Positions 12,326 to 58,494 of a stretch of 64,000 nucleotides of DNA are shown in pieces (within the stretch, counting starts at the first letter, position 1; each line of letters opens with the position of its first letter). Below the pieces are notes generated by a model. The model was not told the origin of the DNA and did not search any database. It was given only the letters and a program-made list of their open reading frames with translations. The stretch lies in the IMG/VR virus record IMGVR_UViG_3300035070_002905, positions 1 through 64,000 of that record. The stretch is one strand, 5' to 3'. The stretch is from a virus. A program made the position numbers and the translations under genes.

Positions 12326-12350
12326 TAAAATATCCTTGAGCAATCAAGGA
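12326..12350 (+). promoter_or_regulatory. putative late promoter TAAAATA plus RBS-sequestering hairpin
   Basis: TAAAATA 12326-12332; TCCTTGA-GCAA-TCAAGGA stem covers the SD. Confidence 0.55.
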
Positions 12351-12357
12351 GATTTAC

Positions 12358-12738
12358 ATGGCAATAATCTACAATCCACCTGAGTGGACAGCAGGAGATA
12401 CGGAAAGTCTACAGTATAGAATTACCGATGAGTTTGGCGCTGCAATCGACATTACCGGATATACTGGTACAATGCAGGTTCGCAGTACGTTCGACGGTGC
12501 ACTAATCGCTACGTCGACAGGAGTACTTAACGTTGACGATTCGACTATCACGTATACATTCCCTCCGTTACAAACCGCTAACTTCCGTTCGACCGGCGCC
12601 GGCAACTATCTATACGATGCCGAAACCGTTTCACCGGATGGAGTTACAACCACAGACGTCCGAGGTACCATTGCAGTAGTAATGGATATCACTCGAGCAG
12701 CTGCAGCACCGGCCGGAACATTCGGAGGTCCTGTATGA
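12358..12738 (+). CDS. virion structural Ig-like protein (BppU N-terminal-like)
   Basis: GDT...IDITGYTGTMQVR...YLYD...G.I.V..DITR pattern typical of baseplate/tail Ig-like modules. Confidence 0.6.
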   Translation: MAIIYNPPEWTAGDTESLQYRITDEFGAAIDITGYTGTMQVRSTFDGALIATSTGVLNVDDSTITYTFPPLQTANFRSTGAGNYLYDAETVSPDGVTTTDVRGTIAVVMDITRAAAAPAGTFGGPV

Positions 12739-33025: not shown

Positions 33026-33047
33026 TGTTATAAATAATATGTAAGGA
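33026..33047 (+). promoter_or_regulatory. putative promoter motif A
   Basis: TGTTATAAATAATATGTAAGGA. Confidence 0.7.
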
Positions 33048-47738: not shown

Positions 47739-48104
47739 ATGAAATATCTACTTATTATACTAGCGTTATTCTCTCTGGCCGGTTGTGGTAAAACTGAAAC
47801 TGTATGGGGAGCAACTACTGGATTCGATGACTACGGCTTTAAGAGAGCTTCGGTAATCGGAGTCTCTACTGATGGGGATCACTACCTGATGTACTCTTGC
47901 GTAGACCGAGGGGTCGAGCCTACTGTACATACCTTCATCGGGAACAATAAGACTCATAAGGTTATCAAAGGAGTTTCTACTGTAGAGCTGCATGCTGCTA
48001 AATACGGTGGAGATAAATACGCTGAAATAGAATCTATAGAGTTTTCCGTTAGTAATTTCGGTGAGACTATGGATGAAGCCTGGAGCTACTGCAGAGGTAA
48101 GTAA
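47739..48104 (+). CDS. lipoprotein
   Basis: Start MKYLL; lipobox LAGC. Confidence 0.7.
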   Translation: MKYLLIILALFSLAGCGKTETVWGATTGFDDYGFKRASVIGVSTDGDHYLMYSCVDRGVEPTVHTFIGNNKTHKVIKGVSTVELHAAKYGGDKYAEIESIEFSVSNFGETMDEAWSYCRGK

Positions 48105-49209: not shown

Positions 49210-49766
49210 TGAAATATCGTTTACTAGAAGGTGTACTAAATGCAATTTGTGATGCCGGAAATACGCCTTATGTTAAGTGTTCTAACCTGCACCCTAACTA
49301 CCGTGGGCCTGAAGAATACGCTGTGGCTGGCTTTACCATTCACGCTATAGGTGGCAATGATGTCACTCACTTCGGTCTTGACGAGAACGGGATCTGCTTC
49401 CGTGCGTCATACAAAGGTGTAGCTCAAGACGTAACGCTTCCGCTAGATGGAATCTCTGCGCTCTACGCTAAGGAAGATCCTGAGATGGGTCTGCATTTCG
49501 ATGTAGCCGATGAGTTCCGAGATGTATTCTCAGAGCAGCAGATGGCAGCTGAACAGCAGGCGGTTACCATGTACGCTCACATCCTACAGCTACGCGATAA
49601 GCATGAGTTCTTCATGGAATCCGTAGAGACTCAGGGCGAGCAGCTACACGAGAAGCTGAAGGAGATCGTACGCTCGGCTCCTGCTCCGGCTCCTGCTCCG
49701 GCTCCTGACGAGTCTACCGGTTTCCGTAAGGAAGCTCATGTAGGCTGGAAGCCGCAAGTAGTATAA
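49209..49766 (+). CDS. sspB: SspB-like ClpXP adaptor
   Basis: TPYV...ICFRASYKG...VTLPLDGISALYAKE...GLHF; Pro-Ala linker; tail KPQVV. Confidence 0.65.
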   Translation: MKYRLLEGVLNAICDAGNTPYVKCSNLHPNYRGPEEYAVAGFTIHAIGGNDVTHFGLDENGICFRASYKGVAQDVTLPLDGISALYAKEDPEMGLHFDVADEFRDVFSEQQMAAEQQAVTMYAHILQLRDKHEFFMESVETQGEQLHEKLKEIVRSAPAPAPAPAPDESTGFRKEAHVGWKPQVV

Positions 49767-49771
49767 AGCAA

Positions 49772-49797
49772 GAAGGGCACCCGTCTGGGTGCCCTTC
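49772..49797. terminator. terminator at strand convergence
   Basis: GAAGGGCACCC-GTCT-GGGTGCCCTTC between convergent genes. Confidence 0.8.
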
Positions 49798-49817
49798 GCT
49801 TACTGCTTCTTTTTTCG

Positions 49818-50348
49818 CTAATGTATACCAATCGACACCGACTTGAATATCACATCGGTTATCGACTGACCGTCGTTCTGTACTATGGCAAAGCGAATCT
49901 TATCGCTCGTGTTAAGTTCCAGCGAGAACTCTACCGACTGAGTGGAATCCCGGTTATTACGCGAGTGTTCGAACATGGTAGGCAGTCCGGCGATACGCCA
50001 GGTTGCTCCACCGTCTCTACTTACGAATGGCGTAATTGCCATCTCTCGGTTGGCCTGGGCTAGGTTAACGATAAACCTGCCGATTATGACGAATGGATTC
50101 ACGGAGAATCCACCTTGATATGTAACAGTGCCGTCTGTGGGATCTACAGTAAACTGATTCCCTTGGACTAGCGTGAACTCTGCAGGGTTGGCTACTTCAA
50201 TCTTAGAGTATAGACTGTAGGTATTCACCGATCCGCCCGAGGTAATCAGGTCGGTTATAGGTGTGGTTACTGCTGTATTCTCCCCGGTCAGCCCGAGGAT
50301 AGTTCGCATGTGTGGACTGGGTGCTCCGATGACCGTTGATAGAATCAT
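49818..50348 (-). CDS. putative structural protein (beta-rich, C1q/TNF-like pattern)
   Basis: TAATG coupling; SVEFSLELNTSDKIRFAI. Confidence 0.6.
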   Translation of the reverse strand: MILSTVIGAPSPHMRTILGLTGENTAVTTPITDLITSGGSVNTYSLYSKIEVANPAEFTLVQGNQFTVDPTDGTVTYQGGFSVNPFVIIGRFIVNLAQANREMAITPFVSRDGGATWRIAGLPTMFEHSRNNRDSTQSVEFSLELNTSDKIRFAIVQNDGQSITDVIFKSVSIGIH

Positions 50349-50653
50349 TACACCCCCGAATGAGTGGCCTTTAGGAATATAGGAGCTGCACCATCGTAAT
50401 CCGTTACGGTAACGAATAGCGGGCTCTTGAATCCTAGGACTACTTCAACTGAAAAATCTGTGGTATGTGTACCGCCGACAGGAAGTGTAGTCACAGGAGA
50501 TTTCTCTCCGTTTACTTCCAACTGCGTCTGCAGCTCTACTCGAGTGGTTGTACCCCAATCTCCTAGACAGGTCACGATCTCACGACCGGTAATCGAACTG
50601 TCCAACAACATGAATTCTGATACATCCCCTTCTATTTTTAGCTCTCTTGCCAT
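50348..50653 (-). CDS. putative structural protein (true start MARELK)
   Basis: GGAG RBS upstream of ATG 50653. Confidence 0.65.
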   Translation of the reverse strand: MARELKIEGDVSEFMLLDSSITGREIVTCLGDWGTTTRVELQTQLEVNGEKSPVTTLPVGGTHTTDFSVEVVLGFKSPLFVTVTDYDGAAPIFLKATHSGV

Positions 50654-50666
50654 ATGCTTTCTCCAT

Positions 50667-50747
50667 AAAAGAAAAGGCACCCGAAGGTGCCTCGATGAGT
50701 GGCCAGCCCGAGGTAAAGGAGGAAATCCCCGAACCGGCGCCATACTC
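50667..50747 (-). ncRNA. candidate sRNA: hairpin with anti-SD loop followed by terminator
   Basis: TAAAATA at 50755-50749; long stem with loop AUUUCCUCCUUUA; AGGCACC-UUCG-GGUGCCU-U tract. Confidence 0.55.
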
Positions 50748-50760
50748 TTATTTTACTACA

Positions 50761-53025
50761 CTATAAGGGGTATGCAGTAGGTGTACCGTCGGAAGCTACT
50801 CCTAATCGGTACCTGCTCCCGTTAGGTGCAAGCATATCTACTCCATCATACGCGAATATCTCTCGGAATCTATTAGTGACAGAGCCTAGATCGTATGCAT
50901 TATTAGAAGTAGGAGTTACGCTAGTAGTTTCTAGGTTAAGATTCCCGAATCTGCGGCCTGGGCTATAGTCTTGACTTGGGACGTCTGTAAATTTCACACC
51001 CCCTATGGCATTTGCGAATCCAGATACTCTAGCATTATTCTCCGAGTTGTACACTGTAATGAACACTGATGTGTTGGCCCGGAACTGTGCTATGGATACT
51101 TCCTGAGATACAACCTCGTCGGTGTGTAGATTGAATACCGTATCGAAACACTGATCTCTGGTTAGTGACTGAGTTACTAAATGGTTGACGGATCCGATTT
51201 GCTTAATATCAAATGTACACCTATAGGTAGCGAAGCCTTGGTCTGGACTAGATCCGTCATCTTTCCACGAGGTATTGTTATAGAGTGCACTTACCGTAGT
51301 CCCACCCGTCTGATGTTCATAAGTACCCTGGAAGCTTACATTAGTGCATATCCCTTGGATAAAGGAATTGATAGCTACTGTATTGGCATTGTATACATGA
51401 ACGTTAGAGATTACTGCGTTCGCACCTCGGTCGAAACGGATAGGCTGCCTGATGTTGTTGCCTGATACATTAGATATGGTACATGATTGAGAGTCGGCAG
51501 AGTGGGGGTACCCTGCTCCATTACCGAATATAGCTATTAGTTTCTCGCAGTCTGCGCCAACTACGTTAGATACTACTACGTTATTCTTTCTAGATCCGGT
51601 ATACCCATTAATAGCGAATACTGTATCGACCAGCGTACAGTACAATCCGTCTATGATAATATTGGCAGGTGCACCGGTATTACCCTCTACTATAACACCC
51701 CTACCTCCTCCACGTACAGCATCCCAGGATGCGTTGCGTACTACAGTATTATAGACACGTATTTCTGAAGTGTTATCACGAATGATAAACCCTGAGTTGG
51801 CTGCGAAATTACCACAGTCAATATCTAGATCGTGCACGTCGATATTCGTTGCATCCCACGCCATGAATACTGACTCGTATCCCGTAAGAATACCGGTAGC
51901 AATGAATGTACCTCTATTATAAAACTTAGTGTTACTACGGAACTCAAGTGCAGCCGATACATTATAAGTGCCTTCTGGAACAAATATATGTCCTGCCAGA
52001 TCTAGAGCAGCTTGAATAGCAGCTGTATCATCCGCTACACCATCACCTACCGCACCGAAGTCCTTGACGTTCACTACATCGGCAAAACGATCGCCTAGAG
52101 TACGGCTTACTGTAGCGCCGGTAGATGTAACTTCAGCTTCCGTAACGATGTTACTAATGATCTCTACGCGACGATTATACGTCAGAGTAGCTGCGGCACC
52201 GGCAGAGTCTACGGCACTAACCGTCAGAGTATCTCCGACTACATTCCAGCTCTGTACCGTGTAGGTATCAGTCCAGTTATTACCGTACTCCCAGAGGACT
52301 CCTGCAGTCTCTAGGATAGAGTGATTGCCAGTAGTACTTTCGACCATTACACCGTCGGCAAGCGTCCAGCGGTTCAGACGAAGTCCGTTAGCCAGCACCT
52401 GACGCTGACGTCCGGTAGCTTGAATCCAGTAAGCGTAGCTCTCTTGGGTATCACGGAAGCGATCGGATAGAGACTTAGTAGAAGTCCCATCGTTCACTAC
52501 CATCGAGTTCGGATCGACCCATGCCAGACGACCGCCCTGAACGCCCTCTAGGGTGGTTCCAGCCGGGAAGGTATGAGTTAGTCGGATAGACGTCGCAGAG
52601 ATCACTGAGTAGTCTACAGGAGTCTCTAGACGGCCTCGATCGACTAGTGGACCGGAAACGTATACTTCCAGACCGTCGGTCTCGATAGACGTGAAGACTA
52701 TATCAGTCTGTCCGTCGGTTAGCGTATGGCTTTCGCCCTGCGCCTTGTTGAATGGGATCTCGTTCGCCAGTGCACGGCCTACTAGAAGAAGCTCATCGCC
52801 TGCCGTAAGGGCAGTCGTTAGAGTAATCGTCGAGCCTGCAGCATCACGAGTATAATCCTGTGTCGCACCGAATAGTAGGCGGGCACCGTTTAGATAGACC
52901 TCTTCCGCCCCGTCGATGAACGTCAGGTCGAATACAGTCTCGCCGCCTACAGCTACAAACTGCTGGCGGTCGATGATAGAACCGGCGCTAGTATAGTCAC
53001 CGGTAATGTTACTTAGTCTTGCCAT
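50761..53025 (-). CDS. tailspike/depolymerase (beta-helix) with N-terminal virion-attachment modules
   Basis: VYLNG modules; VNVKDFGAVGDGVADDTAAIQAA; beta-helix repeats. Confidence 0.85.
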   Translation of the reverse strand: MARLSNITGDYTSAGSIIDRQQFVAVGGETVFDLTFIDGAEEVYLNGARLLFGATQDYTRDAAGSTITLTTALTAGDELLLVGRALANEIPFNKAQGESHTLTDGQTDIVFTSIETDGLEVYVSGPLVDRGRLETPVDYSVISATSIRLTHTFPAGTTLEGVQGGRLAWVDPNSMVVNDGTSTKSLSDRFRDTQESYAYWIQATGRQRQVLANGLRLNRWTLADGVMVESTTGNHSILETAGVLWEYGNNWTDTYTVQSWNVVGDTLTVSAVDSAGAAATLTYNRRVEIISNIVTEAEVTSTGATVSRTLGDRFADVVNVKDFGAVGDGVADDTAAIQAALDLAGHIFVPEGTYNVSAALEFRSNTKFYNRGTFIATGILTGYESVFMAWDATNIDVHDLDIDCGNFAANSGFIIRDNTSEIRVYNTVVRNASWDAVRGGGRGVIVEGNTGAPANIIIDGLYCTLVDTVFAINGYTGSRKNNVVVSNVVGADCEKLIAIFGNGAGYPHSADSQSCTISNVSGNNIRQPIRFDRGANAVISNVHVYNANTVAINSFIQGICTNVSFQGTYEHQTGGTTVSALYNNTSWKDDGSSPDQGFATYRCTFDIKQIGSVNHLVTQSLTRDQCFDTVFNLHTDEVVSQEVSIAQFRANTSVFITVYNSENNARVSGFANAIGGVKFTDVPSQDYSPGRRFGNLNLETTSVTPTSNNAYDLGSVTNRFREIFAYDGVDMLAPNGSRYRLGVASDGTPTAYPL

Positions 53026-53067
53026 TTAGGAATTCCTTATGTTATGAGGTCGCGATCCTCGTATACA

Positions 53068-53108
53068 TATTTTAGCAGAAAGCCCTCGCGAGGAGGGCTT
53101 TGGGTTTA
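53068..53108 (-). promoter_or_regulatory. terminator (AAAGCCCTC stem) followed by TAAAATA promoter
   Basis: Hairpin 53079-53101; TAAAATA 53074-53068. Confidence 0.65.
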
Positions 53109-58456: not shown

Positions 58457-58494
58457 TATTTTACGAAAAAGCCCTCACGAGGAGGGCTTGGGGT
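58457..58494 (-). promoter_or_regulatory. terminator (near copy of the 53079 hairpin) followed by TAAAATA promoter
   Basis: AAGCCCTC-CTCGT-GAGGGCTTTTT; TAAAATA 58463-58457. Confidence 0.65.

Follow-up and report, generated by a model that had tools for sequence, protein, structure and literature searches.

What is the function of a short non-coding stretch, just past a tailspike gene of an uncultured phage, in which a hairpin holds the complement of the Shine-Dalgarno (SD) sequence open in its loop? The DNA analysed here, called the window, spans the opening 64 kb of an IMG/VR phage record of 172,110 bp that is ~95% complete. The phage genome carries 10 tRNA genes and a phage-type RNA polymerase beta'-like gene; among named phages, its closest relatives are in Vibrio phages D69, D148 and D181 (65% amino acid identity) and in Salmonella phage Arash (56%). 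Arash is an 'orphan' myovirus whose virions contain its RNA polymerase subunits together with a sigma-like factor (PMC10585845). On the minus strand of our phage, positions 50761-66606 hold a series of pectate-lyase-type tailspike or fibre genes, and the element lies just downstream of the last of these, a 754-aa ORF with a pectate-lyase fold (50761-53025, stop codon 50763-50761). A sequence-only reading had proposed that a late small RNA is encoded at this spot and could block strong ribosome-binding sites (RBSs) in trans, perhaps for host shut-off, or serve as a nuclease decoy.

A strand-specific hairpin between a promoter-like motif and a terminator

All parts of the element are read on the minus strand, beginning 6 nt past the tailspike stop codon with the heptamer TAAAATA (50749-50755). 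Orientation and composite counts show that this heptamer is a genuine directional promoter-like motif of the phage family. The genome has 36 copies, each intergenic one of which faces a gene starting 27-60 nt away, many of them immediately after a terminator, and counts of the composite TAAAATA-(10-40 nt)-SD-ATG are 15 for this phage, 4 for Arash and 11 for D69, against 0 for reversed-pattern controls. The computed chance of finding the heptamer in the ~20 nt available at this locus is p ~0.002. The genes that follow the motif are mostly structural, in keeping with the proposed 'late' timing, but a ribonucleotide reductase gene also follows it, so late expression, as read from the genes that the motif precedes, is likely rather than proven. 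At other sites, too, the motif tends to be followed after 4-5 nt by a TA dinucleotide, seen here as GTAT; from this semi-conserved TA, transcription probably starts ~5-7 nt downstream of the motif, near A50743. A flank PWM was uninformative for the promoter because the information sits in the 7-mer core and the variably spaced TA.

The hairpin follows at 50702-50738 (5' arm 50738-50727, loop 50726-50714, 3' arm 50713-50702). In RNAfold its stem is a continuous 12 bp that includes four G.U/U.G pairs; the hairpin with G-U pairs had been described correctly, and its stem, given earlier as 11 bp that 'extends further', is 12 bp long. The 13-nt loop, AUUUCCUCCUUUA, contains the anti-SD heptamer CCUCCUU, and each base of its CCUCC is unpaired with a probability of at least 0.99 in the ensemble. 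The folding energy is -33.7 kcal/mol for the ~79-nt unit (z = -3.98), a stability that 0 of 200 shuffles match, and -19.4 kcal/mol for the hairpin by itself (z = -2.0). Only the minus-strand RNA forms this regular helix, the plus-strand fold being irregular, and the specificity conferred by the four G.U pairs favours an element that works at the RNA level over one that works at the DNA level. The hairpin is single-copy in the 172-kb genome, where TTCCTCCTTT also has a single occurrence on the minus strand. From base composition, CCUCC would fall in a 13-nt loop by chance in ~0.8% of hairpins, which is unremarkable among ~50 hairpins, and CCUCCUU in ~0.04% of hairpins, or ~0.02-0.03 genome-wide. 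A joint chance origin of a G.U-rich, strand-specific helix and a 7-mer anti-SD sequence in a fully open loop is unlikely. The element is a real, well-delimited and strand-specific RNA element.

Two other identities were considered for the hairpin and rejected. Reading the plus strand, with an SD sequence in the loop, fails on the absence of a following start codon and on the irregular fold, and a tRNA-like or tmRNA origin fails because ARAGORN finds nothing at the element. Nearly the same loop, UUUCCUCCUUU, occurs in an unrelated terminator-like hairpin with a 12-bp stem and a U7 tail in a Spirochaetales MAG contig (CAZUAE010000073.1, locus L033, 941-985), where an anti-SD loop on a terminator is probably a coincidence.

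A 7-nt linker joins the hairpin to an intrinsic terminator (50667-50693). Its GC-rich stem-loop (50693-50674; 8 bp, UUCG loop) lies 62 nt past the promoter motif and stands directly before a U tract that reaches ~50667, with UUUUCUUUU as the tail. The next gene, a 101-aa ORF (50348-50653) without a Pfam or PHROG match, has its real start at 50653 and not at 50743: the region 50651-50664 holds the SD, GGAG (50664-50661), and the ATG (50653-50651), and homologues begin MAREL.../MAARG... at the equivalent ATG. The order proposed earlier, TAAAATA, hairpin and UUCG terminator ahead of the next gene's true start, therefore holds on the minus strand as a stand-alone unit of ~79 nt. Its layout is unique in the genome: among 36 terminator-like hairpins, only the one at 50693 has a TAAAATA within 130 nt upstream, and elsewhere the usual order is a terminator and then a promoter. 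Because the promoter comes first here, transcripts from TAAAATA would meet a strong terminator after ~79 nt, and the terminator's position means that the 101-aa ORF and a 176-aa ORF would be reached only by read-through. By its motifs, this non-coding unit appears to be delimited by a promoter and a terminator of its own.

The arrangement resembles that of lambda PR'-tR', in which a promoter yields a short terminated transcript, the 6S RNA, and downstream genes are expressed by read-through only. The lambda 6S transcript is a by-product of Q antitermination, which controls a whole late operon, whereas the phage unit has just two small genes downstream and no known antiterminator or qut-like element. 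Nor is there an antiterminator fold within the unit. When the 5' arm of the hairpin was barred from pairing, the best fold was 10.5 kcal/mol worse and kept the terminator, and we rejected an attenuator or riboswitch leader for lack of mutually exclusive antiterminator and terminator folds.

Identity in one relative and absence from distant loci

A word-index search of 5.8 billion clustered proteins gave a single close homologue of the 101-aa protein (77% amino acid identity), encoded on a 52.6-kb Logan contig, L008. The 64 nt from AGTAAAATA through the entire hairpin to the linker are 100% identical in L008, the TAAAATA core included, and the element overlaps the upstream stop codon there. The adjacent terminator differs from that of the window at ~8 positions in 25 nt, having another stem with compensatory changes (A>G with U>C), another loop and a U6 tail. 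Beyond it, 16 nt around the SD sequence are identical and the downstream coding DNA is ~78-80% identical. The loop of the sequence-only reading is open and is identical in L008, the sole relative with the unit, although loop conservation here means two copies, one relative and a 64-nt tract in which the stem is as identical as the loop.

This identity can be read in two ways. No exact match within ±3 kb is longer than these 64 nt, but over the 20 kb compared the match ranks 11th, with ten longer ones, and further regulatory cassettes show conservation between the two genomes at the 40-50-nt level. The match fits purifying selection, and, since the pair is mosaic, it could also reflect a recent exchange. 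The upstream gene in L008 keeps the tailspike N-terminal part and has a different, shorter receptor-binding part. When L008 8931-9903 is set against window 53044-50761, the relative's 317-aa gene resembles that of the 754-aa tailspike at both ends: the N-terminal anchor region is shared, with several exact matches of 50-89 nt, and the last ~20 residues are similar. The beta-helix body is missing from the 317-aa gene, an example of receptor-binding-domain replacement.

Further afield, an exhaustive HMMER profile search returned 10 more distant homologues of the 101-aa protein, and the hairpin was absent from all seven of the loci inspected. Two of these loci (L023 and L028) have a stop codon, a terminator and an RBS before the 101-aa homologue, without the promoter or the hairpin; in a third (L025), TAAAATA stands directly upstream of the homologue, without a hairpin or terminator; and in the rest the upstream gene abuts the homologue. 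These layouts mark the terminator as ancestral, and the promoter and hairpin as a young, lineage-specific insertion placed between it and the stop codon. Searches for the hairpin elsewhere gave the same picture. Blastn of the hairpin against 50,697 phage records matched the generic terminator part only, and neither BLAST nor a promoter-plus-CCUCC pattern found it in Arash or D69. Exact and degenerate loop-plus-stem patterns had 0 matches in viral contigs and, in metagenome and prokaryote-genome contigs, 4 and 6 matches, respectively, all unrelated and mostly the reverse strand of ordinary RBSs. Scans of IMG/VR with the 101-aa protein and with an alignment gave no match. Missing from the distant homologous loci, from Arash and from D69, the unit does not serve a core function.

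The 101-aa protein belongs to a small family (homologues P0003-P0011, ~104-115 aa) with conserved S-x-TGRE and VELQTQ motifs. Its genes typically follow directly on the terminator of a very large tail-fibre or tailspike gene, a position that suggests a low-copy tail accessory or assembly factor.

A candidate small RNA with an anti-SD loop

The element probably makes a small RNA or a leader, and the validity of the promoter motif, the unique layout and the identity in L008 together make a discrete ~79-nt RNA plausible. Our preferred, though tentative, reading is that of a separate small transcription unit whose ~79-nt product would act through its anti-SD loop on SD regions. The TAAAATA promoter would fire ~5-7 nt downstream, near A50743, and RNA polymerase would transcribe the 5'-terminal 12-bp hairpin and halt at the intrinsic terminator, giving an RNA that begins with a 5' stem-loop and ends, past a short linker, in the terminator hairpin and its U tail. 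The tailspike mRNA would end at this terminator too, and some polymerases would read through it and allow expression of the 101-aa and 176-aa ORFs. The single-stranded 13-nt loop, UUCCUCCUUU, would then pair loop-to-linear with purine-rich SD regions, AAAGGAGGAAA being its ideal partner, and such pairing would occlude ribosome binding, as it does for CyaR, the C-rich loops of RNAIII and the Cuckoo RNAs.

Sharing a terminator with the tailspike mRNA, the unit matches the layout of 3'-UTR-type small RNAs that have their own promoter. DapZ and MicL are of this kind, each with a promoter at or close to the upstream ORF's end and an intrinsic terminator shared with the mRNA. Both are Hfq-dependent host RNAs with mapped ends and targets, whereas the phage unit is known from sequence motifs, and read-through would make its RNA the 5' leader of the next gene as well.

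Which messages could such a loop recognize? We computed the pairing energy of the loop over 217 phage start regions and compared it with that of the generic 16S 3' tail. Loop pairing energy tracks SD strength (r = 0.69), the best match among the start regions is a plain 9-nt AAGGAGGAA, and none of the 217 has complementarity beyond a plain SD sequence or pairs better with the loop than with the 16S tail. The two strong RBSs named as possible targets, at 33042 and 41208, show no preference either, with loop energies of -12.7 and -10.5 kcal/mol against -12.1 and -14.7 kcal/mol for the 16S tail. Loop pairing is slightly stronger for minus-strand genes, which are mostly structural, than for plus-strand genes, and a selective block of early genes is accordingly not indicated. 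A specific anti-SD mechanism in cis was rejected, because the SD of the unit's own downstream gene pairs with the loop over 4 bp at -6.4 kcal/mol, equal to its pairing with the 16S tail. These computed energies single out no target among the phage start regions, and anti-SD action in trans on RBSs, plausible by analogy, is weakly supported.

The proposed mode of action has precedents. Hairpin loops that singly display an anti-SD sequence form an established seed type of small RNAs, described for CyaR and RNAIII (PMC2837412) and for Cuckoo/CcsR (PMC8034643). CyaR (RyeE) of enterobacteria base-pairs with the SD sequences of certain mRNAs through a conserved anti-SD sequence in a hairpin loop (PMC2837412, which cites Papenfort 2008 and De Lay 2009). 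CyaR and the phage unit are alike in being short and of roughly similar size, with an anti-SD hairpin loop and an intrinsic terminator at the end; unlike the chromosomal, CRP-dependent and Hfq-dependent CyaR, the candidate is phage-borne and lies behind a phage promoter motif. A cmscan of positions 49500-52000 against Rfam at E <= 10, with the CyaR model included, gave no match over the element.

In Staphylococcus aureus, RNAIII and the Rsa RNAs block initiation at SD sequences with unpaired C-rich (UCCC) loops on stable stems (PMC2837412). RNAIII is a 514-nt, multi-hairpin RNA of a Gram-positive host and gains specificity from additional contacts, whereas the phage unit has one loop, for which no extended complementarity was found among the phage start regions. 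The Cuckoo/CcsR (ar14) RNAs of Alphaproteobacteria also carry hairpin loops with an anti-SD sequence, CCUCCUCCC, and are made from a UTR, 3' or 5', of a small gene next to them (PMC8034643, PMC4615179). They have two hairpins with CCUCCUCCC loops and usually occur as tandem copies; the phage unit has one hairpin with a UUCCUCCUUU loop, is single-copy and has no Rfam match. Judged by these features, it is not a member of the CyaR, RNAIII/Rsa or Cuckoo/CcsR families.

Should the RNA exist and work by way of its loop, a phage-encoded riboregulator transcribed from a phage-specific promoter would join the few small RNAs known from lytic phages, in a family (relatives of Arash, D69, D148 and D181) that has received little study and packages its own RNA polymerase. 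Its minimal design of one loop, one stem and one terminator makes it easily tested and potentially useful as a compact translational repressor. At present, it stands as a plausible candidate in two metagenomic phages only and not as a demonstrated system.

Other explanations and neighbouring observations

The strongest competitor, which we regard as somewhat doubtful, is a leader acting in cis: TAAAATA would drive the 101-aa and 176-aa genes, the 5' hairpin would block 5'-end-dependent decay, the terminator would attenuate and the loop would be incidental. Other TAAAATA promoters, in this phage and in related ones, do have a short GC-rich 5'-UTR hairpin after them, one such hairpin being conserved as far as Vibrio phage D69, so the hairpin of the element may be a large 5' stabilizer. 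The predicted transcription start would place it within ~5 nt of the 5' end, and the L025 locus shows that a homologue of the 101-aa gene can have a promoter of its own. However, the hairpin has twice the length of the other 5'-UTR hairpins and a much larger loop, and between it and the SD sequence stands a strong terminator (8-bp GC-rich stem, U tail) that has been kept by compensatory changes in L008. At all other sites in the genome, moreover, the promoter stands downstream of the terminator, and barring the 5' arm from pairing reveals no alternative antiterminator fold.

An alternative that looks unlikely to us places the element in the 3' UTR of the tailspike mRNA, where hairpin and terminator would shield the message from 3' exonucleases and TAAAATA would be weak or fortuitous. 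If the terminator also ends the tailspike mRNA, the hairpin does sit in its 3' UTR; the element starts 6 nt past the stop codon (and overlaps it in L008), ahead of the tailspike operon terminator, which the homologous loci show to be ancestral at this position. Yet a terminator hairpin alone normally gives 3' protection, and no such extra hairpin is present at the 3' ends of the cluster's five other tailspike genes. The low chance probability of TAAAATA at the locus, together with its conservation in L008, further argues against a fortuitous motif.

A neutral remnant seems similarly improbable. Here, a promoter-stem-loop cassette would have been recently inserted or exchanged at the boundary of a receptor-binding module, with identity reflecting recency and the loop reflecting chance. 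The two genomes are mosaics that share many long exact matches, the element lies exactly where homology resumes between the differing receptor-binding genes, it is absent from all more distant relatives, and near-identical terminator-promoter cassettes stand at receptor-binding-protein gene boundaries at 53098, 58487 and 87721. Against this, the identical tract is flanked by divergence on both sides, including that of the adjacent terminator, where one would not expect a recently exchanged tract to end, and the strand-specific helix and open 7-mer are unlikely to have arisen together by chance. The hairpin itself is also single-copy. PeSL-like mobile promoter-stem-loop cassettes are present in several near-identical copies per genome, at the boundaries of modules, and we rejected membership of that class on the same single-copy ground, even though other terminator-promoter cassettes repeat in this phage.

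Less probable still is an abundant mimic of the 16S rRNA 3' tail, with GGAU-NN-CCUCCUU-(U)A in its loop, that this lineage of RNA-polymerase-carrying phages would make from a strong late promoter and that acts globally as an SD sponge or decoy; we consider it very unlikely. As a sponge, such a mimic would re-weight translation late in infection between strong-SD and weak-SD messages, and as a decoy it would be bait for a factor or defence nuclease that recognizes the anti-SD tail of the ribosome. Leaderless translation, in which transcripts from A50743 would begin with AUG and yield an N-extended 131-aa form or a short peptide, draws on ATG 50743 lying at the predicted start site and in frame with ATG 50653 in the window, but it is largely refuted and barely credible, because a 2-nt indel in the L008 terminator puts the upstream ATG out of frame and so marks the promoter-hairpin-terminator region as not coding, every homologue has its start codon at the MAR(E/G)L position, and the ORF would contain the terminator and a 12-bp GC-rich hairpin from codon 2. 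An explanation outside those weighed takes a small remainder.

Several features near other TAAAATA copies are of separate interest. The 5' UTR that follows the motif at window 53023-53074 (minus strand) is nearly identical to Vibrio phage D69 (OZ195729.1) 47911-47961, including a small hairpin, GAGGATCGC[G/A]ACCTC, and the stretch ATAACATAAGGA. For phages whose RNA polymerases share 65% amino acid identity, this is far more conservation than a UTR would be expected to show, and the 5' UTR may be a regulatory site. Directly past the tRNA array, at 12326-12360 on the plus strand, TAAAATA is followed by a 7-bp hairpin (UCCUUGA / UCAAGGA) whose 3' arm overlaps the SD of the next gene, AAGGAG, a possible SD-sequestering 5' UTR. 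At L008 2315-2330, compared with window ~58445, a 13-nt insertion creates a CCGGA/TCCGG hairpin right after TAAAATA; the window is without this insertion, indicating that 5'-UTR hairpins are gained and lost between close relatives. Finally, near-identical terminator-promoter cassettes (AAGCCCTCCTCG[C/T]GAGGGCTT...TAAAATA) at window 53068-53101 and 58457-58490 and at genome 87687-87721 (minus strand) recur at receptor-binding-protein gene boundaries, the 58.4-kb copy being identical in L008, and could be recombination linkers for tailspike module swaps.
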